This document shows, one piece after another, positions 9,700 through 59,974 of a stretch of 64,000 nt of DNA. This DNA comes from an uncultured bacterium (GTDB taxonomy: Bacteria > B130-G9). Made by a program: the position numbers and the translations under genes. The stretch is taken from assembly GCA_965372715.1 (NCBI GenBank), contig CBDVDH010000003.1:34495-98494 (forward strand), in the 5' to 3' direction. The notes under the pieces are model-generated. The model had not been told where the DNA came from. It made no database searches and saw only the letters and a program-made list of their open reading frames with translations. The first letter of the stretch is position 1. Each line of letters begins with the position of its first letter.

Positions 9700-9952
9700 C
9701 TCGCTCCGTCCCGGATAGGCACTTCGCTGCGTGTCCTAACGACGAAGCCAGCTGCGTCGTGAGACGCCATCGGTCTCGGCCGTTGCTTAGGCAAATACAA
9801 TCCACCACCGGCAGCATCCAGTCGCAATCTCATACGAGTTCACTCCCCACTTGTGATTATATGGTTTCCAACCGTACCCGTTTTCCGGTTATGCCCCAGA
9901 TAGTACTCCAGGGATGAGATATCACCAAGTATTTGTTGTTCAATAAACGAGC

Positions 9953-9996
9953 TTGACATTAAATCTACTATAATGGTATATTATTGGCAGAGGTGA
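9953..9996 (+). promoter_or_regulatory. Putative sigma70-type promoter and SD for the rrf2-led operon
   Basis: AT-rich island in a GC-rich genome. TTGACA (9953-9958) is followed by N18 then TATATT (9977-9982). The SD GAGGTG (9990-9996) lies just before ATG 10000. Confidence 0.4.
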
Positions 9997-9999
9997 ATA

Positions 10000-10428
10000 A
10001 TGAAACTATCAACACGGTCCAGATACGGACTCAGGGCAATGGTTTTTATAGCTCGCAATGCGGCGCGAGTCGTCTCGAGCGAGATCATCGCAGAGAATGA
10101 GGATGTCTCAAAGAAGTACCTCGACCGGATCCTGAACCAATTGAGGAGGTCCGGCCTGTTGAGAAGCGTCAAAGGGCAGGGTGGAGGATACGTTCTTTCG
10201 AGACCGGCGGACGAGATCCGAACCGATCAGATAATCGCGGCACTTGAGGGCAGTTTGTGCCTCGTTGCGTGCGTTGACGAGCCATCCCTATGCAGGAAAG
10301 CGGCAGACTGCCGCACGCGCAAAGTGTGGTCTCTTATTGCCTCGGCGGTCAGCGAGAGCTTGCGGGGTATTTCCCTTCTTGAGCTTGCGGTCGGGGAAGG
10401 AATGAAAGGGTGTCGCGGCCCACAGTAG
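10000..10428 (+). CDS. Rrf2-family transcriptional regulator (IscR/NsrR-like, putative Fe-S cluster ligands)
   Basis: N-terminal wHTH (MKLSTRSRYGLRAMVFIA...SSEIIAENEDVSKKYLDRILNQLRRSGLLRSVKGQGGGYVLSRP) is the Rrf2 signature. The Cys cluster CLVAC...C....C matches IscR-type cluster ligation spacing. Confidence 0.8.
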   Translation: MKLSTRSRYGLRAMVFIARNAARVVSSEIIAENEDVSKKYLDRILNQLRRSGLLRSVKGQGGGYVLSRPADEIRTDQIIAALEGSLCLVACVDEPSLCRKAADCRTRKVWSLIASAVSESLRGISLLELAVGEGMKGCRGPQ

Positions 10429-11297
10429 GACAACTCGGAGTCAAGAAGGAGTTTGCGCAAATCCCAACCGGCAGGGAGTTTTTGGGAAGGACTATGACGA
10501 GGCAGGGCGAAAGCACGGTTATGTTCTCTGGCGGACTCGATTCCACAACCACCGTCGTGTTGCTGTCCGAGGTCTATGAGAAGTTGCACCTTCTGACGTT
10601 TTGCAATGGCTATGGCCACTGTTTCGTGCGTTGGTCAGAGAAGCAAATGCCTAACTTCGACCGGATACTAGGGAAAGATCGCTATGTTCACATCATTCAA
10701 GACTGCTCGGACCTCTTTGAGCGACTTCTGATCGACACACTGCCCGGGGACTACCGAGCCTACAGGTCCAAGTTCATCTGGTGCATGGCCTGCAAGCTGG
10801 CGATGCACACGTGCACTATAATGTATTGTCTGGAGCACGGGATTCGGCATTCCTCGGACGGGTCATCCACTCAGACCAACTATTACGTGGAGCAGATGGA
10901 GGCGAACCTGAAGGCCATCAAAGACTACTACGGGGAGTTTGGGATAGATTTCTCGATGCCGGTTTACAGGGTTGGCAGTCGAGATGAGGAGAAGCGGATA
11001 CTTGCGCAGAAGGGAATCAAGAAGGTTGGCCTGAGCATCGCGGGCAGGAACCCAGGAACGCAGCCGCTGTGCGTGCCCGGCAACTTGATCTACCTTTTCT
11101 CGACGTTCTTCAAGATACACCCGAGATATGCCGAGCACGATGTTCTGCGATTTATCGACGAGAAGAAAAGAATTGCTGTGTCCTACATGAGAGAAAAGCT
11201 CGGCGAGAAGGGCTTGGACGTGGACCAGCTCGCTCTGAAATTGAAAGGAGGCGAGGCAGCAAGATGGCGTGCTGCGGACTTAGCGGCAAGGGCATGA
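10410..11297 (+). CDS. PP-loop ATP-pyrophosphatase superfamily protein (QueC/LarE/TtuA-like) with conserved CxxC...C; paralog 1
   Basis: PP-loop SGGLDS (MFSGGLDSTTTVVLL) with a QueC-like continuation (LHLLTFCNGYGH). Mid-protein CxxC (FIWCMACKLAMH) and a C-terminal GTQPLC. The true start is possibly the internal M at ~10494 (MTRQGESTVMFSGG). It overlaps the rrf2 stop. Confidence 0.65.
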   Translation: MSRPTVGQLGVKKEFAQIPTGREFLGRTMTRQGESTVMFSGGLDSTTTVVLLSEVYEKLHLLTFCNGYGHCFVRWSEKQMPNFDRILGKDRYVHIIQDCSDLFERLLIDTLPGDYRAYRSKFIWCMACKLAMHTCTIMYCLEHGIRHSSDGSSTQTNYYVEQMEANLKAIKDYYGEFGIDFSMPVYRVGSRDEEKRILAQKGIKKVGLSIAGRNPGTQPLCVPGNLIYLFSTFFKIHPRYAEHDVLRFIDEKKRIAVSYMREKLGEKGLDVDQLALKLKGGEAARWRAADLAARA

Positions 11298-11641
11298 CCT
11301 CAATGCTCGGGTTGCTCGTATTTGTAACTCTTTCGTTCATATTCGGAGGTCTGGGCGTTTTGTTGCTCGGCTTCCTCGGAGTGTTCTCCAAACGCTTCCG
11401 GTTCTGGGCTCGGACGCTCGTGACCGTGCTCTCGGTATCCGTGCCGCGGATGTTTCACGAGCTGCTCAACGATTCGTATTTCTGGCGGCCGGACCTCAAG
11501 TGCGTCGTTTCAGGGAAGCTCTTCGGCTACTCGCCGGCCTTCTCCGGATTTGTTTTCAAGTATTTCAATCTGTTCGTGATAGTAGGGATGTTCGGCCTAA
11601 TGGGTCTCCTGGCGGGCGCAATAGTCAAACTTGCGGGATGA
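11264..11641 (+). CDS. Small integral membrane protein (~125 aa, 3 predicted TM helices)
   Basis: AAGGAGG (11244-11250) upstream of ATG 11264. Hydrophobic segments LGLLVFVTLSFIFGGLGVLLLGFLGVF and FNLFVIVGMFGLMGLLAGAIV. It lies between PP-loop paralog 1 and the cysteine desulfurase. The alternative start is 11294. Confidence 0.4.
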   Translation: MACCGLSGKGMTSMLGLLVFVTLSFIFGGLGVLLLGFLGVFSKRFRFWARTLVTVLSVSVPRMFHELLNDSYFWRPDLKCVVSGKLFGYSPAFSGFVFKYFNLFVIVGMFGLMGLLAGAIVKLAG

Positions 11642-12866
11642 GAGCATGACTTTGGACGTTACGAGCATAAGAAAGCTCTTTCCTGCGCTCCAGGTTAAGG
11701 TCAAGAAGAAACCGGTCGTCTATCTGGACAACGCCTGCATGTCGCTGAAGCCGATTCCCGTTGTTGAGGCGATGAACGATTACTACTATTCATATCCGGG
11801 CTGTCACGGCAGAACGGCCTACTATTTCGGACGGCGCACCACGGAGGAGTATGACCGGGCTCGGGAACGGCTTGCCAGGTTGATCAACGCTCCCCAGTCC
11901 AAGGAGCTGATCTTCGTCAAGAACACCAGCGAGGGCCTGAACCTCGTCGCCAACTCGCTGCCCTTTTCGGAGGGCGATGCCGTGGTCACCACCAATGTGG
12001 AGCACAACTCCAACCTCCTGCCCTGGCAGGTGCTCAAGCGCCGGCGGAAAGTGGAGCACGTCATCGTGAAACTCAGAGAGGACCTGACGTTCGACCGCTC
12101 GGCCCTCACAGAGGCGATGTCGAGCAAGGTGAGGCTCGTCAGCGTGGCCCAAACGTCGAACCTGACGGGCGTGACGATGCCGGTCAAGGAAATCGCTGAA
12201 ATCGCCCACCGTCATGGCGCCCTGGTGATGGTCGATGGGGCACAGTCCGTGGCCCACAGCAAGGTTGACGTTCAGGACCTGGACATCGATATCCTCGTCT
12301 TTTCCGTGCACAAGATGATGGGCCCGACCGGCGTTGGCGTCCTCTGGGCAAAGGAGGAGGTGCTGAACAAGATGGAGCCGTTCATTGTGGGTGGTGAAAC
12401 TGTGCTGAACACGTTCTACGACAGCTATATCCCCGCCGGTCTGCCTGACCGATTCGAGGCGGGACTTCAGAACTACGCGGGGGCAATCGGGGCCGGAGTC
12501 GCGGCGGAATACCTGATGAATCTCGGGCCTGACGAGGTTCACGAGCACGAAGTGGCCCTCAATCGCATCATGACCGATATGCTCAAGGACATTGACGGTC
12601 TTAGCATAATCGGCCCAGACGCCCCTGAACTGCGCGGTGGGATTCTCAACGTGTCCGTCGATGGGATGAAGGCGCTGGAAGTCGCTCGCATACTCGATCA
12701 GGCCAACAACATCATGGTTCGGGCTGGCTACCTCTGCGTCCACTCGTGGTACAACGCCTGCGACTTGCCGCACTCAATCCGCGCCTCGGTCTATGTCTAT
12801 AACACGCCCGCCGAATGCGCGCTATTCGCCGACGTTCTGACCAAACTCGTCAAGCACTACCGGTAG
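11631..12866 (+). CDS. Cysteine desulfurase / class-V aminotransferase (SufS/NifS-like)
   Basis: PLP-lysine motif SVHKMMGPTGVGVL. Putative persulfide cysteine in RAGYLCVHS (compare SufS RSGHHCA). Full-length class-V fold (VYLDNACMS...TSEG.N.VA...DGAQSVAH). Confidence 0.85.
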   Translation: MRDESMTLDVTSIRKLFPALQVKVKKKPVVYLDNACMSLKPIPVVEAMNDYYYSYPGCHGRTAYYFGRRTTEEYDRARERLARLINAPQSKELIFVKNTSEGLNLVANSLPFSEGDAVVTTNVEHNSNLLPWQVLKRRRKVEHVIVKLREDLTFDRSALTEAMSSKVRLVSVAQTSNLTGVTMPVKEIAEIAHRHGALVMVDGAQSVAHSKVDVQDLDIDILVFSVHKMMGPTGVGVLWAKEEVLNKMEPFIVGGETVLNTFYDSYIPAGLPDRFEAGLQNYAGAIGAGVAAEYLMNLGPDEVHEHEVALNRIMTDMLKDIDGLSIIGPDAPELRGGILNVSVDGMKALEVARILDQANNIMVRAGYLCVHSWYNACDLPHSIRASVYVYNTPAECALFADVLTKLVKHYR

Positions 12867-12875
12867 GGGTTCTCT

Positions 12876-13691
12876 GTGTCTCAGTGTCTCTGTGGTGAGA
12901 GGATAGACGTCGTGAAGGAGAACGAACCGGAGCGGAGTGCGAGGAGGCCGGCTGTTACGTTGATGTATTCGGGCGGGTTGGATTCGACGGTCACGGCACT
13001 GACGCTTGCCGGGCAATACGACAAGGTTCATTTGCTCACTTACGCCCGGGGTTATGGTCACTGGTTCGTGGGCCGGTCAAGGGTGCGCGTCCCGGAGCTC
13101 GAAAAGCACCTCGAAAGGAGCGTTTTCACTCAGTTTAGAGCCAGCGTGAAGGGACTCTTCAAGAAGATCGTCCTCGATAGCTTCGTCGCGGATTTCAGGA
13201 AGTACAAAGCGTTGTTTATTGTCTGCGTGGGCTGCAAGATGGCGATGCACGCCCGTTCGGTGATCTACAACCTCGAACACGGAATCCCATGCGTGTCTGA
13301 TGGGTCCGCCGAGACGACGGCCTGGATGCCGGACCAGATGCCGGTCACGCTGGCCGAATACAAACGGCTTCACGAGGACTACGGGCTGACCTACTCGAAT
13401 CCTGTCTATCACTTCGGCACCCGGGAGAAGGCGCGTGAGACGCTTCGCGCGGCGGGCCTCTCGATGGGGCGCCGCATCGCGGACCGGGACTTCGGGACGC
13501 AGCCTGTCTGCCTCTTCGGCGACGTAATCACGATATTCCGCGAGTTCATGAAGGTCGGCCTCCCGCTGAAGGAGGAGAGCATCGTGGATTTCATGCGTGA
13601 GAAGCGGCCAATCCTCGACGACTACATCAAGGATTACTTTGTCCAGAACGGCCTTGATTTATACGAGCTGAAGGAGCGGGTGGCCCAGTGA
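12876..13691 (+). CDS. PP-loop ATP-pyrophosphatase superfamily protein with conserved CxxC...C; paralog 2
   Basis: LMYSGGLDSTVTALTL, VHLLTYARGYGH, FIVCVGCKMAMH, GTQPVCLFGD. Collinear with paralogs 1 and 3. Confidence 0.65.
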   Translation: MSQCLCGERIDVVKENEPERSARRPAVTLMYSGGLDSTVTALTLAGQYDKVHLLTYARGYGHWFVGRSRVRVPELEKHLERSVFTQFRASVKGLFKKIVLDSFVADFRKYKALFIVCVGCKMAMHARSVIYNLEHGIPCVSDGSAETTAWMPDQMPVTLAEYKRLHEDYGLTYSNPVYHFGTREKARETLRAAGLSMGRRIADRDFGTQPVCLFGDVITIFREFMKVGLPLKEESIVDFMREKRPILDDYIKDYFVQNGLDLYELKERVAQ

Positions 13692-13984
13692 CCGGATGAG
13701 CCTTTAGTGAGGGTGTCTTTTGCCCCTGAACCGGTCGGTTACGAAGGCTGGCTTGCGCCCGATACACGCCAACCCTTGGTGCTCGCCGCCTAACGCAGCC
13801 CAAAGGGGACAGGCGCCCTCACCCCCTCCGAGGCGCGCTATCAGACAGGTTCGGCCCCTTCAGGGCCGATCTTGGGGAGGTGGGGATGCGTTTCGATTCC
13901 GTAGGTTAGCACCTACGACTACCGGTGTGTTCCCCCGTCGGGGAGAGCTTCAGGACGGAAATCGCTGGCCACAAGGATAGATTG

Positions 13985-15454
13985 CTATCCCCCCTTCATC
14001 TGCCCCTTCAATAGCTCAAGGTTCTCCCGGACAAGTCTCGTCTTCGGATGATCGTCGCCCAGGAACTTCCTGAATATTGCAATCGCCCGCTCATAGCACT
14101 CCTTCGCGCCGTTCAGATCGCCAAGGGCCTTAAGCACCAAGCCAAGATTATTCACGCAAGTAGCAACTGTCGGATGGTCCAGGCCATAGGAATCCTCAGC
14201 TATAGAACGACCCCGCTCACAAGACTTCTTAGCGCTATTCAGATTGCCAAGGGCCTGAAGCACTATGCCAAGATTGCTGACCCGAATGGCAACGTTCGGA
14301 TGGCCCGGGCCAAAAGCCTTCTCGTCGATAGCAAGCGCTCGCTCAATACACTTCTTCGCGCCATTCAGATTACCAAGGGCCTGAAGCACTATGCCAAGAT
14401 TGCTGACCCGAATCGCAACGTTCGGATGGTCCGAGCCAAAAGCCTTCTCGTCGATAGCAAGCGCTCGCTCAATAGACTTCTTCGCGCCATTCAGATCGCC
14501 AAGGGCCTGAAGCACTATGCCAAGATTGTTCAGGTGAGTCGCAACTTCAGGATGATCAGGGCCAAAAGCCTTCTCGTCGATAGCAAGCGCTCGCTCATAA
14601 CGCTCCTTCGCGCCGTTGAGATCGCCAAGGTCGCGAAGCACCGAGCCAAGATTGTTCACGTCCCTCGCAACATCGGGGTGGTCCGGGCCATAAGAAGCCT
14701 CGTCTATCTTAAGTGCTCGCTCAAAACGCTCCTTCGCGCCGTTGAGATCGGCAAGGTCTTGAAGCACCATGCCAAGATTGTTCACGTAAGCTGCAACTGT
14801 CGGATGGTCCGGGCCATAGCAAGCCTCGTGTACGGCAAGCGCCCGCTCATAACACTCCTTCGCGCCCTTCAGGTCACCAAGGTTCTGAAGTACCGAGCCG
14901 AGATTGTTCACGTCAGTCCCAACTCGAGCATGATCGGGGCCAAGAGCCTTCTCGTCGATGGCAATCGCTCGCTCAAAAGACTCCTTCGCCCCTTTCAGGT
15001 CACCAAGGTCCTGAAGTACCGTGCCGAGATTGTTCACAATCGTCGCAACCTCGGGATGATCTGGGCTATAGACCGCCTCATAGATCGCAAGCGCCCGCTC
15101 GTAACAGTCCTTGGCCTGTGAGAAGTCAGCGCGGCCTCCCAGATACAGGCCAGCCTGATTGAGCAGGCGCCTGAGAGCATTCGAAGCCAGGCCAATCGCT
15201 TCCGCGTGGCCGGCCGCGGCGAGCGCATGCGCTATCAGCCGGGAGCATTCGGACCAGGTCGTAACGTCATGACTGTCGTCCGGAAAGGCGTCGTTCAGTA
15301 GCTCGACTGCCGCCTCGACCAAATCAGTTTTGTTCTGACCTGACAGCCTGTCTCGCGCGACAGCCTGAAGCAATCGGTGCAGGCTGGCGTGGTTTCCTTC
15401 CCGGTCGATCAACGAGTAGCGCTTCAGGTTCTGGACGGCCTTGTCGAATCGCAT
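13985..15454 (-). CDS. TPR-repeat segment (C-terminal part of an interrupted TIR-NB-ARC-TPR STAND protein)
   Basis: About 10 tandem 42-aa TPR_10/12-like units (NNLG.VLQ.LGDL.GAKE..ERALAIDEKA.GPDHP.VA). It is in the same frame as the upstream NB-ARC ORF. The sequence just after the in-frame TAG (LKRYSLIDREGNHASLHRLLQAVARDRL) is the winged-helix motif normally contiguous with NB-ARC. Confidence 0.8.
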   Translation of the reverse strand: MRFDKAVQNLKRYSLIDREGNHASLHRLLQAVARDRLSGQNKTDLVEAAVELLNDAFPDDSHDVTTWSECSRLIAHALAAAGHAEAIGLASNALRRLLNQAGLYLGGRADFSQAKDCYERALAIYEAVYSPDHPEVATIVNNLGTVLQDLGDLKGAKESFERAIAIDEKALGPDHARVGTDVNNLGSVLQNLGDLKGAKECYERALAVHEACYGPDHPTVAAYVNNLGMVLQDLADLNGAKERFERALKIDEASYGPDHPDVARDVNNLGSVLRDLGDLNGAKERYERALAIDEKAFGPDHPEVATHLNNLGIVLQALGDLNGAKKSIERALAIDEKAFGSDHPNVAIRVSNLGIVLQALGNLNGAKKCIERALAIDEKAFGPGHPNVAIRVSNLGIVLQALGNLNSAKKSCERGRSIAEDSYGLDHPTVATCVNNLGLVLKALGDLNGAKECYERAIAIFRKFLGDDHPKTRLVRENLELLKGQMKGG

Positions 15455-15502
15455 TCTGTCTTTGGCCGCGGCGGCAAGCGAACGCGGCAGAAAGCGCGCG
15501 CC

Positions 15503-16903
15503 CTAGCGGATCACGTCCAGCGGGATTCTGTCCGGCGCGAAGAAGGCGAAGAGATTCATCAATTCTGCCGCAACGGGGCGTTCCTCTTTGAACTTCTCTG
15601 ATGTGATCTCCCAGGTGGTTGCGACGGATTTCTCGTACGGGTCCAAGTTAGAGCATCGCTCCAGAAGCTCCTTCTGCCGCTTTCGAAAGAGATCGAGGTA
15701 GTCTGAGGCGGAGCAACCCGTCTCCTCCAGGTAGGCCGCCGCCTGTTCCAGCGCGAGCGGAAAGTCGCCGAGCTCCCTCGAAAGCTCGCGGAAACCCGCA
15801 TCGTCCTCTCTGCCCGTTCGTTTGCCAATGAACTCGACGGATTTGTCAGGCTCAAACTCCTTCACCTTGATCGGCTGCGCGATGCCCCTGAAGCTCGGAT
15901 TCCGAGAGGTCGCGATCACGTGGCCTTTGCCGCCCTCTGGAATCAAGTCGGCAATGTCGCTTGGCTCACAGACGTTGTCGAAGACGAGAAGCCAACCTCG
16001 CCGCCGCCCGAGCTCCCTTCTCACCGCCTCAATGGCTTCGGGCTGGTTCATGGGATCGATGCCCGGCAGCTTAAGCTCCGCGCCCAGTGAGGCATAGTCG
16101 TCCCGCAGCGTTGGGGCAAGCTCGGACCTCATCCACCAGACGATCTCGTAGTCGGCGCAGTGCCGATACACGTATTCGAGCGCAATCTGCGTCTTCCCGA
16201 TGCCGCCCAGGCCGTGCATCGCCTGTGATATGACGCCGACCTTGCCAGAACTCAATGCACTCTCCAACCTGGCAAGATGCTCCTCGCGGCCCGTGAAGTT
16301 GCGGTTCCTCGAATGCGGCACGTTCCAGACCGGGGGCAATGCACCGGGGAAACGCCGACCTGGAGGCTCTTTAGCCACATCCTCGGCAATGCCCGGAAAT
16401 TCGGGCCTGGTGGTCGCTTCGCTCGGGCCCATGAGATCGGCAAGCAGTTTTGCTCTGGCTTGGTCTTCATTCAGGGCCGCCAGATTGATGTACTTCCTGC
16501 CCGAGAGAATCCCGAGCGGCGTGTCCTTATCAATCAAGACCGGGACAAATCGTGAAGGCTGACCTTCTTCATTTGTGTAGAGAGCGGACGATATCTCGTC
16601 CCAAACAGCACGAGATGCTAACGAACGAGGGGAGAGCAGAACCATGACGCGCTCCGCCTCGAGCGAGGCGTCATACATGTGCTTGTGGATGTTCTCTCCG
16701 GTCCCGAAGTCCCTTTTGTCTCGAATATAAGTGTAATTCACGCCGTCCAACTGCCAGCAGATCCAATCGGCCCACTGCGAATCGCCATGAGAGTAGCTTA
16801 TGAAAAAGTCCTTCATCTCAAATCCAATTGTGGTGCGAACGGGCGTAATAACCGACAAGAGGAAAGAATGAGCTATTCGAGGCCCGAAATCAATGAATAT
16901 CAA
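15503..16903 (-). CDS. TIR domain + NB-ARC (STAND) ATPase segment; the ORF terminates at an in-frame TAG 16 codons before the TPR ORF
   Basis: TIR signature FFISYSHGDSQWADWICWQLD. P-loop GLGGIGKTQIALEY, Walker B LLVFDNV and a GHVIATSRN (RNBS-like) motif. The stop TAG at 15503-15505 is in frame with the 13985..15454 ORF. Confidence 0.75.
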   Translation of the reverse strand: MIFIDFGPRIAHSFLLSVITPVRTTIGFEMKDFFISYSHGDSQWADWICWQLDGVNYTYIRDKRDFGTGENIHKHMYDASLEAERVMVLLSPRSLASRAVWDEISSALYTNEEGQPSRFVPVLIDKDTPLGILSGRKYINLAALNEDQARAKLLADLMGPSEATTRPEFPGIAEDVAKEPPGRRFPGALPPVWNVPHSRNRNFTGREEHLARLESALSSGKVGVISQAMHGLGGIGKTQIALEYVYRHCADYEIVWWMRSELAPTLRDDYASLGAELKLPGIDPMNQPEAIEAVRRELGRRRGWLLVFDNVCEPSDIADLIPEGGKGHVIATSRNPSFRGIAQPIKVKEFEPDKSVEFIGKRTGREDDAGFRELSRELGDFPLALEQAAAYLEETGCSASDYLDLFRKRQKELLERCSNLDPYEKSVATTWEITSEKFKEERPVAAELMNLFAFFAPDRIPLDVIR

Positions 16904-16988
16904 GAGGAACAGATGAGAGGGCGGGGCATACCTGAAGACTATCCAAGTGCGCTCTGGGCAATATCCACAAGTTAGGAAGTTAATCAGA

Positions 16989-17039
16989 GGCGATGCCGGG
17001 TCATCGCGAGTGAAAGCGGTGCCGGGTCACCGCACTCCA
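16989..17039. repeat. Double-hairpin ~50-nt repeat element, family B copy 1
   Basis: GGCGATGCCGGGTCATCGC-GAGTGAAA-GCGGTGCCGGGTCACCGC-ACTCCA. A second copy with the same architecture lies at 53329-53379. Confidence 0.6.
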
Positions 17040-17059
17040 TACAGGCAGCCCGCTAAATC

Positions 17060-26178: not shown

Positions 26179-26370
26179 GGAGAGAACCGGTAGGGCCTTT
26201 CGATTAGGTCGGACCCTCCTGGATATTGAGCCCCGAGCGTTCCCAATTCTTGTTCTGAATTGTGCGCGACATGATTCTGCTATTGAGAATCCGAACTCAA
26301 TTGGGTACAACCATGCGGTAGAGGTTTATTCTCGAGCATTAGCTTAGGACGCGAAGTCAGGGAGCCAGAA

Positions 26371-26670
26371 TTGTCCAAGGATCATAAGCATGGTTCTGTT
26401 GCTTTGCAGCGCAAGCATAGACTGCCGCCCGTTTCGGAAGACGAGAGCATCAAAGCTTATAAAAGGGAGCTACCTCGGTTGCTCCTGGAGCACGAATCCG
26501 AGTTCGTTGCGTTTGCTGAAGGCGAATTGATCGGCACACATGCCGATCGTGACGAGCTCCGGAAGCTTGCCCACGATTTACATCCCGGTGAGTCTATACT
26601 AGTGACGAGAATTCAAAGGACGCCGCGGCGCCGCAGACTCTTGTCTCCCAAGGGAAGATTCAGCGGATAG
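26371..26670 (+). CDS. Small hypothetical protein (99 aa), 5' partner of the aspartyl protease ORF
   Basis: No recognisable motif. The ORF ends 10 nt before the next ORF. It is paired in one transcription unit. Confidence 0.4.
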   Translation: MSKDHKHGSVALQRKHRLPPVSEDESIKAYKRELPRLLLEHESEFVAFAEGELIGTHADRDELRKLAHDLHPGESILVTRIQRTPRRRRLLSPKGRFSG

Positions 26671-26679
26671 AGGCTAACG

Positions 26680-27057
26680 ATGCGTGCCCATTACCATCAG
26701 AATCTGGATCCGCCTGCGCCTGTCGTTGAAGTTTCCTTCGAGAATCCACTCACAAGAGAGGTCTCTTCGGTATATTGTCTTCTGGATACGGGAGCGTATG
26801 CCTGTCATCTGCCAGGTTCGGTCATCAATTCCATTGGCCAAACTGATTACGAGCCTTGCGAAATCGAGGTTGTTGGCGGTGGCATAATCGGCACACGCTC
26901 CCACTTCCTAAGCGTGACGTTCTGTGGAAAAGATATGGGAGAACTTGAGGTTGTTGAGCTGCCCGAAGGAGATGACCAACCTCTTCTCGGTCGAGACGTG
27001 CTCAACCAGTTCGTCGTAACACTGAACGGCCCGGAACTCACCTGCGAGATCACGTGA
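26680..27057 (+). CDS. Retropepsin-like (clan AA) aspartyl protease domain protein
   Basis: Catalytic D-T-G inside a hydrophobic context (VYCLLDTGAYACHLP) plus a downstream GRDVLNQF motif. The ~125-aa size fits single-domain retropepsin-like proteases that dimerise. Confidence 0.55.
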   Translation: MRAHYHQNLDPPAPVVEVSFENPLTREVSSVYCLLDTGAYACHLPGSVINSIGQTDYEPCEIEVVGGGIIGTRSHFLSVTFCGKDMGELEVVELPEGDDQPLLGRDVLNQFVVTLNGPELTCEIT

Positions 27058-27102
27058 GAGTCGACTAGGCGCGGACTGCGCTCTAATCGCCGCGCGAGGG
27101 CA

Positions 27103-48986: not shown

Positions 48987-51092
48987 TCAGACGTATTGCA
49001 GCCGATACAGGTCGTAGTAGATGCCGCGCCTCGTCAGGAGTTCTCGATGGGTGCCTTCCTCGCGGAGGCGACCCTTGTGCAGGACGATGATGCGGTCGGC
49101 GTGCTCTATTGTGCTGAGGCGGTGGGCGACGATGAGGCATGTTCGGCCCTTTGTCAGGTTGATGAGGGCCTCCTGAATGAGTGACTCGGTCTCCGGGTCG
49201 ATGTTCGAGGTCGCCTCGTCCAGGACGAGTATTCTTGGGTCAAACGCCAGCACACGGGCGAACGCCAGCAATTGCTTCTCGCCGGCCGACAATGTCGCGC
49301 CTCGTTCAACAACAGGCTCCTCGAGACCTTTGGGGAGGCGGGAGATGAGGCGGTTTGCGCGAGCAATTTGGACGCTTTTTTCAACTGTCGCATCGTCGAT
49401 GCCCGCCTCATTGAGCCTGATGTTGCCTCCGACAGTGGTAGAGAAGAGGAAGACGTCCTGCTGAACCACGCCGATCATCTTCCTGAGGTTTTCGAGCGAG
49501 AGTCGGGCGATGTCGGCACCGTCGATGAGTATCTTTCCCTTTTGGAGAAGGTAGAGGCGCGACAGCAGGCTTGTCATCGTCGTCTTCCCGGCGCCGGTCG
49601 CGCCGACTATCGCGAGCGTTTCGCCGGGCCTCACCTTGAATGAGACGTCCTTCAGGACCCAGTTATCGTCGCCGTAGGCGAACCAGACGTCCTTGAACTC
49701 AACGCTCGTGTCCCTCGGCGCGGATACTTCGGGCAGCGCGGCGATTCTCGGCTCCACGTCCCTGTCCAGCAGCTGGAAGATCCGCTCGGAGGACGCCATC
49801 GCGGCCTGGATGATGTTGAACTTCTCCGTCAAGTCGTGTATCGGCCTGAAGAACATCCTCATGTAAGCGATAAACGCGACGAATATGCCCAGCGTAACCT
49901 CATTTTGGACAACTCGGCCGCCGCCATACCAGATGATGAGCGCGACCGCCGTGTTGTTCAGAATCCAGACAGTGGGTCTGAAGACGGCCATTATCATTAT
50001 CTGTTTCTTTCGCCATGAGAACACTTCGTGGTTGACGTCCTGGAACTTCTTGTCGATCCGCCCCTCCTGGCAGAACGCCTGTATCACGCTCATGCCGGAG
50101 ATAAACTCCGCGAACGACGCGTTCATCTTGGCGATCTTGACCCTTATCTTGCGGTATGCGCTTCGCGCTTTTCTTCGGAACACGATCGACACGTATATGA
50201 CTAGTGGCAGGATGGTGAACGCGACGAGGGCGAACTTCACGCTCATGTAGAGCATGACGCCGGCGATGGCCAGCAGCATCAGCACGTCCTTGATGATTGT
50301 AATGAGAATCGCGCCGAACATCTCCTCCAGCGTGGAGAAGTCGTTGGTGGTTCGGGTTACGAGTCGTCCGACCGGAGACCTGTCGAAGAACGCAAGAGGC
50401 AGCCTTTGGATGTGGTCAAACAGGGACAGCCTCAGGTCGAAAAGCGCCCGCTGGCTCGTGTATTGCATCAAATAGACGTGAGCGTAGAAGATGATGAAGT
50501 TGACGACGAGTATCGACAGGAAGATGACGCCCAGGGTCTTCAGGCCGCTCAGGTCTTTCCCACGCAGCGTGAGCAGGTCCCCGAGCGGCAGCTTGCTGAG
50601 CTTTTCGACCTCGACGTAGAAGCCACCATCGGATTCTGCGAAGGCATTCTTGCGACAGATATCCGCAACCTGCCGCCATTTGCTCGGCGGATAGTTGCTC
50701 TTCAGAATCAGATAGATGCGCTCGTCGCCGATCAGTCCTTTGTCTCCTAGAAGCTTGAGGTCGGCGGACAGCAGGTTGTTGGTCTGCGTGGTGTCGATAA
50801 GGAACTCGGTCTTCGATATGGGCACGAGCAAGTCCTTGTATTGCCGATAGAAGCGCTCACGAAGCGAGTTGTCTTCGAGCGTTATCATCTTGCTCGCGAC
50901 CGCGATGTGCCGGTCGATGGCCAGCCGCGTCAGATACGGCAGCGAGACGTCGAATCCCGCGCTTATGATGACAAGGAACGCGCAAAGCGCGATGATCGGC
51001 CAATAAGGCTTGGCATACTTGAGCAGGCGCTTCATCAGGCGCCAATCGTAAGGCCGGTCTAGAGCATCCTCGGGGTAGTAATCGTCATTCAT
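48987..51092 (-). CDS. Fused ABC exporter (TMD + NBD, MsbA/type-I exporter family), subunit 1 of a probable heterodimer
   Basis: 6-TM ABC_membrane domain with an unusually long N-terminal extracytoplasmic loop. NBD Walker A GATGAGKTT, signature LSAGEKQLLAFARV, Walker B LVLDEATSNID. Confidence 0.85.
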   Translation of the reverse strand: MNDDYYPEDALDRPYDWRLMKRLLKYAKPYWPIIALCAFLVIISAGFDVSLPYLTRLAIDRHIAVASKMITLEDNSLRERFYRQYKDLLVPISKTEFLIDTTQTNNLLSADLKLLGDKGLIGDERIYLILKSNYPPSKWRQVADICRKNAFAESDGGFYVEVEKLSKLPLGDLLTLRGKDLSGLKTLGVIFLSILVVNFIIFYAHVYLMQYTSQRALFDLRLSLFDHIQRLPLAFFDRSPVGRLVTRTTNDFSTLEEMFGAILITIIKDVLMLLAIAGVMLYMSVKFALVAFTILPLVIYVSIVFRRKARSAYRKIRVKIAKMNASFAEFISGMSVIQAFCQEGRIDKKFQDVNHEVFSWRKKQIMIMAVFRPTVWILNNTAVALIIWYGGGRVVQNEVTLGIFVAFIAYMRMFFRPIHDLTEKFNIIQAAMASSERIFQLLDRDVEPRIAALPEVSAPRDTSVEFKDVWFAYGDDNWVLKDVSFKVRPGETLAIVGATGAGKTTMTSLLSRLYLLQKGKILIDGADIARLSLENLRKMIGVVQQDVFLFSTTVGGNIRLNEAGIDDATVEKSVQIARANRLISRLPKGLEEPVVERGATLSAGEKQLLAFARVLAFDPRILVLDEATSNIDPETESLIQEALINLTKGRTCLIVAHRLSTIEHADRIIVLHKGRLREEGTHRELLTRRGIYYDLYRLQYV

Positions 51093-51113
51093 TTGCTATC
51101 CAAATAGTACGAA

Positions 51114-51211
51114 CCACAGAGACACAGAGACACAGAGAAAGAGTCGCTAGCGCGGTGCCAGTCCGACTTGTCGTCCACTCAGTCAATCTGCGTAATCTGC
51201 GTAATCTGCGG
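51114..51211. repeat. Short triple-tandem motifs between the two ABC exporter genes
   Basis: CCACAGAGACACAGAGACACAGAGAAAGAG (51114-51143) and AATCTGCGTAATCTGCGTAATCTGCGG (51185-51211). The second motif also occurs at 1187-1213. The first also occurs at 7090-7111 (reverse complement), 12869-12894 (reverse complement) and 23470-23488. Confidence 0.7.
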
Positions 51212-51221
51212 ACAGAACCTC

Positions 51222-53030
51222 TCATGAATCTCTCGCAAGCCTTTCCTCGATCTGCTGCTTGGCGAAGAGCGCCGCGTAGATGCCGCCCTCCTTGAGCAGC
51301 TTCTTGTGCGTGCCTCGTTGTTTCACCTGGCCTTCGTCGAGGACGATTATCTCGTCCGCCAGCTGCACCGCCGAGAGCCGGTGCGAGACGATTATCGTTG
51401 TGACATTCTCGATCGCATCCCTCAGGTTACCGAGTATCTGGGCCTCAGTCTCGGTATCGACGGCGGACAGGCAATCATCGAGGAGAAGGACGGGCGGGTT
51501 CTTTACTAGAGCTCTGGCAATGGCAACGCGCTGTTTCTGGCCGCCGGAGAGCATCACGCCTCGCTCGCCAACGATCGTGTCGTATCCGTTGGGGAAATCT
51601 GCAATGTCTTTGTCAATCGCCGACCTGCGCGCAAACTCCTTGACCGCAGACTCGTCAAGCTCCTCTTGGCCGAAGGCGATGTTCTCCCCGATGCTCTCTG
51701 AGAATAGGAAGGAGTCCTGCGGTACGTACCCGAAGAGCCTCCTTAAAGCGTGCGTTCTCAGCTTCCTGGCGTCCACGCCGTCAATGAAGAGCGTGCCCGG
51801 CGGCGGGTCGAATTCACGCAACAGGAGTCGGACGATCGTGCTCTTGCCCGCGCCTGTGCGGCCCACAATCGCTAACGTCTTGCCCGGCGCAACATCGAAA
51901 CTGACATTTGAGAGGACAGGCGCGACGCCATCGCCGTAAGCGAAGGTCAGGTCCCTACACTCGATACGTCCAGGGCAGCTGGGCGGCTCGAAGGGGTTCG
52001 GCTCGTCAACGATCTCGGGCCTGACGTTCATAACGCGATTGATGCGCCCCATCGAGGCGGCGCCGCGTTGGAGCAGGTTTATCAACCATCCGAGGGCGAT
52101 CATCGGCCAGGTCAGCGTCTCGAGGTACATCGAGAAGGCGAAGAAGCTGCCGACTGACATTTGGCCCAAGATGACGTCTGAGCCCCCCTTATAGAACGCT
52201 ATGGCCATTGACAGGCCAGCCAAAAGCCATATAAGCGGCATGAACGCGCCCCAAATCCTGACAAGGCGCATGTTGTCCTTGACATAGTCCCAGCTGACAT
52301 CCCTCACGCGGTCGAGCTCGCCCGCCTCCTGCCCGAACGTCTTGACGACCCTTATCCCCGCAAAGCTGTCCCTGATCTTCTCGGTCATGTCCGAGACGCG
52401 CGCCTGAACCACCTCGAAGCGAGAATGGACCATGCGTCCGAACTTGATGACGACGACCGTCAGAATCGGCAGCGGCAGCAGCGCGTAGAGCGCCAGGCCG
52501 GCGTTGATATAGATCATCATCGCAATCGCGGCAGCCGCGAAGAGAAAGCCGTCGATCATCGTGATAATCCCCATCCCGCAGGCGAGCCGGACCTTCTCCG
52601 TGTCGTTCGAGATGCGGGCCATCAGATCGCCCGTTTTGCTGTGCTGGAAGAATCGCTGCGAGAGCGTGAGTAGGTGGCTGAAGAACTTGCCGCGAATCTG
52701 CTCGGAGATACGCTCAGCGGTAACAATCAGAAAGAAGAACCAAAAGAACCGACTGATCGCCATTATTAGGCCGATGACGAACACTGCAACGGCGAAGAGC
52801 GGAATGTCCGACAGGTGGATTGTTCCCGCCGTCATGAGGTCAACGAGGCGCCGGATGATCAGCGGCGTGATGAGTTGCACTGCGTCAACGATGAGCAGGG
52901 CGACGATTCCCCACATCGTGTAGCGCCGGTACTGCCAGAAGTAGGACGCGATAGCCCGAAGCGACTCGCGCTTCTCGCGCCTCGCGCTTCTGTTCTTTAC
53001 TCGTGAGTCGTGCTTCATCGTCCTTCCCAA
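51222..53030 (-). CDS. Fused ABC exporter (TMD + NBD), subunit 2
   Basis: Walker A GRTGAGKST, signature LSGGQKQRVAIARAL, Walker B LLLDDCLSAVD. It is adjacent to and co-oriented with subunit 1. Confidence 0.85.
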   Translation of the reverse strand: MGRTMKHDSRVKNRSARREKRESLRAIASYFWQYRRYTMWGIVALLIVDAVQLITPLIIRRLVDLMTAGTIHLSDIPLFAVAVFVIGLIMAISRFFWFFFLIVTAERISEQIRGKFFSHLLTLSQRFFQHSKTGDLMARISNDTEKVRLACGMGIITMIDGFLFAAAAIAMMIYINAGLALYALLPLPILTVVVIKFGRMVHSRFEVVQARVSDMTEKIRDSFAGIRVVKTFGQEAGELDRVRDVSWDYVKDNMRLVRIWGAFMPLIWLLAGLSMAIAFYKGGSDVILGQMSVGSFFAFSMYLETLTWPMIALGWLINLLQRGAASMGRINRVMNVRPEIVDEPNPFEPPSCPGRIECRDLTFAYGDGVAPVLSNVSFDVAPGKTLAIVGRTGAGKSTIVRLLLREFDPPPGTLFIDGVDARKLRTHALRRLFGYVPQDSFLFSESIGENIAFGQEELDESAVKEFARRSAIDKDIADFPNGYDTIVGERGVMLSGGQKQRVAIARALVKNPPVLLLDDCLSAVDTETEAQILGNLRDAIENVTTIIVSHRLSAVQLADEIIVLDEGQVKQRGTHKKLLKEGGIYAALFAKQQIEERLARDS

Positions 53031-58579: not shown

Positions 58580-59974
58580 GTGACGATTCAGTGTCCCGAA
58601 TGCGGCTGCGCCAACACGGATGAGGCGACGAATTGCACCGATTGCGGCTGCCTGCTTATAACGGACGATGACGAGGACACAAAGACCGACATTGCGCTGC
58701 CGTCCTTTAAGAAGGGCGTGAAGGTTGGCGGTCGGTATGAGATAGTCTCTGAAGTTGGCAAAGGCGGCTTTGGTCGGGTCTTCCGCGCCGTTGACTTAGA
58801 GACTGAGGAGCTCGTTGCCCTGAAAGTCCTCAAACCCTCTCTCACGAGCGACGAACAAGTTCGTGCGCGGTTTTTGGGCGAGCTCAAGATGTCGAGGCGC
58901 GTGGTGCATCCAAACATAATCCGCCTCACCGACATTCTGGAGGTTTCCGGACTACTTGTCTTGGTGATGGAGTTCGTCGAGGGGATGAGCCTGAAGCAGA
59001 TGGTCCGGCGCGAGGGACCTTTCGACGTTGAGTTGGCCTACACGATAATCTCTCAGGTCTGCCTGGGGCTTGACGCGGCGCATCGCGTCGGGGTCGTTCA
59101 CCGGGACGTAAAGCCGCAGAACATCCTGATCACCAAGAATCTTGGGGTCAAGATAGTTGACCTGGGGCTTGCGCGCCACCTGGGCGGCACGTCCGTCTCA
59201 CAGACCGGGGTGATAATGGGGACGCCCGACTACATGTCTCCGGAGCAGGTTCGCGGCAAAAGCGTCGAGGCCAGATCGGACATCTACTCGCTTGGCGTGG
59301 TGATGTATGAGATGTTCACCGGCAAAGTACCGTTTTCAGGGGATTCATCGGTGGCAGTACTCCTCGCTCATTTGAGGCAGGCTCCAGAATCACCGATGAG
59401 GGTGCGACCGGATCTGCCTCCCTGGGTCAACTACATGATACTCAAAGCGATGGCGAAGAAGCCAATCCAGCGATTTAACAAGGCCACGGAGCTTCTCAAG
59501 TATTTCGAGAAGAGTATGGCTGAGGCCAAGCTGGAGGAGAAAGTCGAGAGGCGGGATGTGAAGCACATAAGGGAGAAGGCGCCTCCAGAAGTCAAGCTTC
59601 CGTTCCCGGCCCGGGGAGACTCAAAGAAGAAGCTGCGTGTCGTTTCCACCGTGTTAATAGCCTCCATCGCAGTTCTGACGATCGTCGCGGTCGTGGCGCT
59701 TCGGACGCATTTGGAGAGCTCAGAAAGGGTGCAAGCCATCATCAGCTCCGCAAAAGAGCACGAGAGGCGGCTGGATTACTACGGCGCGTGCGAGGTTTAC
59801 ATTGAGGGGACGCGGGAGATTCCGGGCTCAATTCCGCTCTATCTGCGAGCGGCGATGGCTTATGTACAATACATCTCACAGGAGCATCCTTTGCCGCTTG
59901 TGTTGTCGCTTCTGGTGGTTCTTGGCCTGCTTCTTGCCCCTCTTTTCTTGATACAGCGGAAACTCAGGCGTTGA
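58580..59974 (+). CDS. Ser/Thr protein kinase (Hanks-type) with N-terminal double zinc ribbon and C-terminal TM anchor
   Basis: GTG start. Zn ribbon CPECGCANTDEATNCTDCGC. Kinase motifs GKGGFGRVF, VALK, HRDVKPQNIL, DLGLA, TPDYMSPE. Hydrophobic helix near the C-terminus. Confidence 0.85.
   Translation: MTIQCPECGCANTDEATNCTDCGCLLITDDDEDTKTDIALPSFKKGVKVGGRYEIVSEVGKGGFGRVFRAVDLETEELVALKVLKPSLTSDEQVRARFLGELKMSRRVVHPNIIRLTDILEVSGLLVLVMEFVEGMSLKQMVRREGPFDVELAYTIISQVCLGLDAAHRVGVVHRDVKPQNILITKNLGVKIVDLGLARHLGGTSVSQTGVIMGTPDYMSPEQVRGKSVEARSDIYSLGVVMYEMFTGKVPFSGDSSVAVLLAHLRQAPESPMRVRPDLPPWVNYMILKAMAKKPIQRFNKATELLKYFEKSMAEAKLEEKVERRDVKHIREKAPPEVKLPFPARGDSKKKLRVVSTVLIASIAVLTIVAVVALRTHLESSERVQAIISSAKEHERRLDYYGACEVYIEGTREIPGSIPLYLRAAMAYVQYISQEHPLPLVLSLLVVLGLLLAPLFLIQRKLRR

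Follow-up and report, generated by a model that had tools for sequence, protein, structure and literature searches.

An interrupted TIR-NB-ARC-TPR reading frame

The locus described here lies in a 64-kb stretch of DNA from an uncultured bacterium (the whole stretch of 64,000 nucleotides is called the window below), whose public record is a 159-kb metagenome scaffold (ENA ERZ23499000, ZORZ22-1_SAMN30647029 scaffold_14). It holds a minus-strand reading frame for a bacterial NLR-like STAND protein, made up of an N-terminal TIR domain, an NB-ARC nucleotide-binding module with a winged-helix domain and a C-terminal array of TPR units, and interrupted once by an in-frame TAG codon. Two open reading frames (ORFs) of 466 amino acids (aa) (15503-16903) and 489 aa (13985-15454) share one frame and are parted only by TAG 15503-15505 and 16 sense codons, coordinates that reproduce those of a preliminary description of this DNA. 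The shared frame alone is no proof of a single gene, because 11 of the 33 adjacent same-strand ORF pairs in the window also share a frame, no more than chance would give. The verdict of one gene follows from homology that continues across the stop. Domain searches were run on the conceptual translation through the stop, beginning at the ATG at 16816. NCBIfam model NF040586 matched residues 169-935 as one stretch across residue 438 (550.9 bits against a cut-off of 300, a score that holds for this read-through translation alone), and the Pfam DUF7779 match (residues 409-494) is likewise a single stretch crossing that residue. In a protein search with the first 583 residues, which returned 1622 matches at E <= 1e-20, the junction was continuous in all 119 homologues listed, the window's own 437-aa fragment aside; alignment to orthologues, which had been proposed as the check on continuity, thus came out in favour of one gene. 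On sequence evidence, the two ORFs are a single gene for an NLR-like STAND protein, interrupted by a stop.

The start is ATG 16814-16816 (MKDFFISY). Because orthologues and the public gene call share that start, the gene is 943 codons long; of the single gene of ~970 aa proposed earlier, the unity is upheld by the profile matches and homologues, and the length, which assumed a start at 16903, is corrected. No second stop or frameshift was found in the gene, TAG 15503-15505 being the only break in its reading frame. The interrupted TIR-NB-ARC-TPR gene is thereby confirmed as an observation, and the interpretation first given to it is, taken as a whole, supported. The features of the locus, all on the minus strand unless noted, are as follows.

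13985..16816, minus: whole TIR-NB-ARC-winged-helix-TPR reading frame, 943 codons with the internal stop counted; it opens at ATG 16814-16816 and closes at TAG 13985-13987
16442..16807, minus: TIR domain, residues 4-125 (Pfam TIR_2 at 86 bits, cut-off 28)
16595..16597, minus: GAG codon of Glu74, invariant in the family alignment, aligned with the Glu of (W/F)xxxE in solved TIR domains and presumed catalytic
15794..16285, minus: NB-ARC module, residues 178-341 (Pfam NB-ARC at 29.2 bits, cut-off 23.5)
16190-16213, minus: Walker A motif GLGGIGKT, residues 202-209
15977-15991, minus: Walker B motif LLVFD, within the NB-ARC module
15335..15592, minus: winged-helix domain (Pfam DUF7779, residues 409-494), containing the internal stop
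15503..15505, minus: premature TAG, codon 438; GAG (Glu) in the orthologue; on the plus strand this gives A at 15505 in place of the C expected from the orthologue
15455..15502, minus: stretch of 16 codons that separates the stop from the following ATG and still encodes conserved winged-helix sequence
15452..15454, minus: ATG (Met455) opening the 489-aa ORF; TTG (Leu) in the orthologue, Leu being the family consensus
15377-15379, minus: His480 (SLHRLL), conserved winged-helix residue downstream of the stop
13988..15106, minus: TPR sensor array of eight 42-aa (126-bp) units plus a terminal unit (Tandem Repeats Finder array 14079-15112)
9768..17059, no strand assigned: 7.3-kb segment of the window; the nearest relative has 346 unrelated bp in its place

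Each domain of the conceptual protein retains the residues by which its family is recognised. Glu74, looked for as the catalytic Glu of the TIR domain, is present, is invariant among 18 family members, and in profile alignments lines up with the conserved Glu of the post-strand-C motif in solved TIR domains, a residue with a described catalytic role (PMC9806590). The sequence family and this Glu after beta-strand C make the domain a candidate TIR NAD+ hydrolase. A search of the PDB with the single sequence gave no match; with profiles, the TIR domain matched TLR, MyD88, TIR-STING, AbTIR, PdTIR and Cat1 chains, and the NB-ARC region matched AfsR, Roq1, NRC1/2/3, ZAR1 and Apaf-1. The Pfam score together with the Walker A, Walker B, TSR and GxP motifs assigns the nucleotide-binding module to the NB-ARC/AP-ATPase clade. 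All the invariant family columns are kept here, namely Glu74, the Walker A core, Asp and Asn of LLVFDN (Walker B), TSR (sensor-1 Arg), the G-x-x-P-L-A core of GDFPLAL (GxP) and His480. The C-terminal part gave Pfam TPR_10/TPR_12 matches to eight to nine units.

The internal stop, the syntenic orthologue and loss of the gene

The best relative of the gene is syntenic, lying on two contigs of one related lineage (L002 and L007) after the same 391-aa glycosyltransferase gene and a gene of 269/272 aa; the flanks of this lineage are 82-87% identical to the window and the gene occupies the same spot. Where L002 and L007 read CGC GAG GGC, the window reads CGC TAG GGC. Because the syntenic orthologue has GAG at that codon, the lesion is, as judged from this comparison, one G>T transversion turning a Glu codon GAG into TAG, a single-base change that agrees with the cause named earlier, a nonsense mutation or a sequencing error. 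Across the 119 listed homologues the position is held by E, S, D, A, Q or G, Glu being the commonest. The 16 apparently intergenic codons read GARFLPRSLAAAAKDR, against GAKFLPRRLTAAIKDG in the orthologue. The structure of the orthologue region, 76% identical and standing in for the window sequence, was modelled (AlphaFold, AF2; mean predicted local distance difference test, pLDDT, 82). In this model Glu275, the equivalent of the stop position, ends a confident helix in the winged-helix domain, and two more helices and the beta-hairpin wing come after it. The earlier placement of the stop inside the NB-ARC winged helix therefore holds, since the DUF7779 match spans it and the model puts Glu275 mid-domain. 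The top Foldseek matches of the orthologue model were Apaf-1, NRC1/2/3, CED-4, RPP1, Roq1, MalT and the archaeal STAND-TPR protein PH0952, and the model shows the order nucleotide-binding domain, helical domain 1 and winged-helix domain with its conserved His.

Both sides of the stop have been constrained. Against L007, the ratio of nonsynonymous to synonymous substitution rates (dN/dS) was 0.21 in the NB-ARC part before the stop and 0.14 in residues 439-600 after it, values that point to purifying selection on both halves for nearly all of the divergence. Selection on both halves until recently leaves two possibilities: the stop arose very recently, or it is not real. As a separate observation, the TIR domain (residues 1-140, 16397-16816) shares only ~39% identity with the syntenic orthologue (proportion of nonsynonymous differences, pN, 0.41), against ~76% for the NB-ARC part (residues 171-437, 15506-16306; pN 0.12) and 85% for the flanking glycosyltransferase; the TIR effector module would either evolve much faster than the switch or have been swapped by recombination.

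The TPR array differs between the two lineages, with nine units in the window and six in L007. Tandem Repeats Finder gave a 126-bp period with 7.6 copies and 80% matches, and pairwise identity of the DNA units was 68-86%, with one adjacent pair at 94%; of the near-identical 126-bp repeats described earlier, the period was recovered and the near-identity was not. That such an array would be prone to slippage and misassembly is supported by the unequal unit numbers and by L002, which follows L007 at 99.4% identity until, within a TPR unit, it passes into a murE-like gene on the opposite strand (L002 5375-5947). This join probably arose as a chimera when short reads were assembled at the repeats. 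The 726-aa protein of L002 (P0002), tried as the closest intact orthologue, was rejected because its C-terminus is a false one made by the join to the murE-like gene, and the 821-aa protein of L007 (P0121) was taken as the reference. A 357-aa antisense ORF (14048-15121, plus strand) lies wholly inside the TPR repeats and most likely reflects their recurring codon pattern rather than a gene.

Relatives of the protein number in the hundreds at 42-49% identity, from bacterial and archaeal metagenomes, and some are named FxSxx-COOH system tetratricopeptide repeat protein by NCBI. Those of the adjacent glycosyltransferase are from uncultured bacteria, two of them labelled Candidatus Coatesbacteria. 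The nearest relative of the window (GCA_964480475.1) has both flanks at 93-94% nucleotide identity and lacks the TIR-NB-ARC-TPR gene together with the rest of segment 9768-17059. The same junction of glycosyltransferase and small gene recurs in two contigs from other data sources, which makes three records in which the nearest relative lacks the gene, and three more distant relatives had no copy beside the glycosyltransferase within the 0.5 to 6.4 kb available past that gene. Because the nearest relative is without it, the gene appears dispensable and in the course of being lost in the lineage. The most economical reading of these comparisons would be an ancestral accessory gene being lost, deleted in one lineage and stop-interrupted here. 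A mobile element was considered for the 7.3-kb difference and rejected, as neither repeats nor gene remnants were found at the segment borders. The segment also holds an Rrf2 regulator (10000-10428), a SufS-like cysteine desulfurase (11631-12866), an ORF without assignment and two proteins with only weak PP-loop matches (SGGxDS, QueC-like; 10410-11297 and 12876-13691); its non-TIR genes are an uncharacterised sulfur-transfer cassette. A second variable region between the two genomes adjoins clpC, where the nearest relative (L004 1-1635) has a BrxC/BrxD-like ATPase and a TerB_C/sigma70_r4 protein and the window (~26200-27100) has different small ORFs.

Origin of the stop

We favour, at a probability of about three in four, a real nonsense allele, likely a recent loss of function in a dispensable accessory gene whose lineage is also deleting it. 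By analogy with the solved Avs, plant TNL and Apaf-1 systems, the TPR array of the intact protein would hold the ATPase in a closed, ADP-bound state, from which binding of a trigger would release it; the trigger would probably be a foreign protein or peptide, such as one from a phage. The NB-ARC modules would then oligomerise and bring the TIR domains together, so that Glu74 could form an active NAD+-cleaving site, and NAD+ depletion or signal production would arrest the infected cell. With G>T at codon 438, translation should end after Arg437. The truncated product would comprise the TIR domain, the nucleotide-binding domain, helical domain 1 and two helices of the winged-helix domain, and would be without His480 and the whole sensor.

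Several points weigh against this picture, some touching the defence role and some the reality of the stop. The neighbours are housekeeping or sulfur-metabolism genes (glycosyltransferase, sugar-nucleotide enzymes, clpC, SufS-like, Rrf2 and cupin genes), none of them a defence gene, so that the surroundings do not form a recognisable defence island. No PADLOC system model, Avs and NACHT models included, matched the read-through protein at E <= 0.01; PADLOC gave only generic matches to TPR (4e-11 class), bSEFIR and TIR fragments. The literature found holds no experiment tying this subfamily to phage defence. An antiphage NADase would thus be a reasonable reading of the architecture by analogy, and of the earlier statement that TIR-STAND proteins are established antiphage effectors the architecture is retained here, with the antiphage role kept as an analogy. 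As to the stop, the gene apart from codon 438 looks fully functional, which fits an error as well as a very recent mutation. The 437-aa truncated product is on record in NCBI, ENA and Logan, but one set of reads probably underlies all three records, and the TAG may be a consensus base error or a minority allele that the assembler chose.

If the stop were such an error of sequencing or assembly, the organism would carry GAG and make a normal, functional 942-aa protein, and the TAG would be a consensus artefact. A single base separates the codon from that of the orthologue in a gene with no other defect, the source is a metagenome scaffold, and L002, a related short-read contig, is visibly chimeric within the same gene. 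Against an error, the stop stands in unique sequence ~400 bp upstream of the repeats, and no other broken gene is evident in the 64-kb window, where coding density is 89%. Logan is an independent re-assembly of public reads, and recovery of the identical truncated product from three sources including it speaks against an error too, as a weak check given the reads probably shared. We consider an error unlikely. Recoding, in which TAG would be decoded as pyrrolysine or another amino acid and the gene would be intact as written, could draw on the relatives of the protein, which include members from Methanosarcinaceae and ANME archaea, groups that use pyrrolysine, and on the genome having been seen over 64 kb only. 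But TAG terminates 20 of the 58 ORFs in the window (counted on a greedy ORF set covering 89% of it), including clpC, as first described, and this gene's own end. Neither a tRNA gene of any kind nor a match to an Rfam family was found in the 64-kb window, and within it the signs of pyrrolysine use (tRNA-Pyl or pyl genes, scarce TAG stops, a conserved position) are lacking; the stop position is variable in the family, with Glu in the orthologue, and the relatives are Candidatus Coatesbacteria metagenome-assembled genomes (MAGs). Because TAG is a frequent stop and the window has no tRNA gene, recoding of TAG in this organism, by pyrrolysine or otherwise, is very unlikely, the least probable of the explanations weighed, and was rejected.

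The interruption might instead be functional, either as a split into a 437-aa TIR-nucleotide-binding protein and a separately initiated 489-aa winged-helix-TPR protein (ATG 15454) or as regulated read-through of the TAG that limits a dangerous effector. The first codon of the downstream ORF is indeed ATG, against TTG (Leu) in the orthologue, Met at position 455 occurs in only 2 of the 119 listed homologues, and neither half carries further damage. A two-gene TIR + TPR defence operon, unrelated to this locus, has also been reported to give anti-phage immunity (bioRxiv 10.1101/2023.05.26.542521). That system, though, has no NB-ARC module. The break here falls inside a compact winged-helix fold rather than at a domain boundary, none of the 119 listed relatives is split at that point, no Shine-Dalgarno-like motif was found upstream of ATG 15452-15454, and a change from Leu to Met is conservative and to be expected by chance. 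A functional split or regulated read-through is accordingly hard to credit, with less to commend it than an error. More doubtful again is its specific form, that the 437-aa and 489-aa products reassemble as a two-piece STAND receptor or that rare read-through keeps the toxic dose very low; if true, this would be a natural bacterial NLR-like protein tolerating or exploiting a break inside its winged-helix domain.

The consequence is chiefly one of annotation: public records should join the gene calls of 437 aa and 489 aa and mark them as a single, interrupted TIR-NB-ARC-TPR gene, and beyond this the importance is little. The locus is a small example of turnover of an NLR-like accessory gene in an uncultured lineage with Candidatus Coatesbacteria MAGs as relatives, with three states, intact with six TPR units, stop-interrupted with nine units (here) and lost (nearest relative), and with a TIR module that has diverged far more than the ATPase. 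If the stop proved polymorphic in reads, it would capture the ongoing loss of a presumably costly immune gene.

Surroundings and comparison with known systems

The gene has a glycosyltransferase operon on one side and the sulfur-metabolism cassette on the other, and stands alone between them. A defence-island context was tried on its ten nearest neighbours and rejected; PADLOC returned only DndA/SspA-type matches for the desulfurase (160 bits), read as family-level similarity, and a marginal WYL match. Ten large proteins elsewhere in the window showed only kinase, histidine-kinase and subtilase similarity, seemingly generic. A Ser/Thr kinase (58580-59974, plus strand) matched many PADLOC PD-T4-6 kinase models at up to 310 bits, and two histidine-kinase-like proteins (48987-53030, minus strand) matched mad3/mad8 models; these are probably generic family-level similarities, not defence systems. 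A non-coding stretch of ~155 nt (13790-13945, minus strand) starts ~40 nt after the gene's stop and has a counterpart at L007 9515-9672. It is 83% identical between the window and L007, against 75% for the adjoining TIR-NB-ARC-TPR gene, and shows frame-breaking indels, several hairpins, a compensatory exchange of one U-A pair for C-G within the stem CGUAGGU/ACCUACG and a minus-strand fold z-score of -2.4. It matched no Rfam family and has no second copy in the window, and a scan of JGI metagenomes returned only the orthologue's own contig. From these features it could be a 3' untranslated region or a small RNA tied to the gene.

The combination of TIR, NB-ARC and TPR is already well documented, and the gene is an ordinary member of a known family. 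The Avs (AVAST) proteins, reportedly antiviral STAND NTPases in work by Gao et al. of 2022, and the bacterial NACHT proteins, said to be treated by Kibby et al. in 2023, likewise join an effector, a STAND NTPase and a repeat sensor, and the same course from trigger binding through oligomerisation to effector activation would be expected here. Some Avs proteins have TIR effectors, which are treated as NAD+-depleting. Unlike them, the NTPase here belongs to the NB-ARC/AP-ATPase clade, with its best profile and fold matches in AfsR, Apaf-1 and plant NLRs, and was matched by no PADLOC Avs or bNACHT model at the threshold given above.

The order TIR, AP-ATPase and TPR is also that of the FxSxx-COOH system TPR protein, the family of the NF040586 match. 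In that setting a TIR-AP-ATPase gene accompanies FxSxx-type peptide-processing and vWA-MoxR conflict systems (Kaur et al. 2020, PMC7159879), whereas the gene here is alone and interrupted by a stop. Gene calls within ~10 kb and NCBIfam/Pfam scans of the ten neighbours yielded no FxSxx precursor, radical SAM/SPASM, metallopeptidase, vWA or MoxR gene in that range, and membership of an FxSxx-COOH system was rejected despite the match to the model, the partner genes being missing nearby.

Plant proteins of similar layout have been named TNP, and TIR-NB-TPR architectures were noted in bacteria and fungi at the same time (Johanndrees et al. 2022, PMC9806590). With TNP and with TIR-NLRs such as Roq1 and RPP1 the protein shares the order of TIR, NB-ARC and repeat sensor and the conserved TIR Glu, and with Roq1 an NB-ARC profile match at E = 3.5e-11. 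The similarity in sequence is limited to the NB-ARC module; by profile the TIR domain here resembles animal TLR and bacterial TIR domains more than those of plants, and bacteria lack an EDS1-type downstream pathway. The best match to the NB-ARC module among solved structures is AfsR, the Streptomyces SARP-NB-ARC-TPR regulator (PDB 8k60, 8jke; E = 1e-14), which also ends in TPR units but carries a SARP DNA-binding domain in place of the TIR domain and is a transcription factor, in contrast to the presumed NADase of the locus described here.

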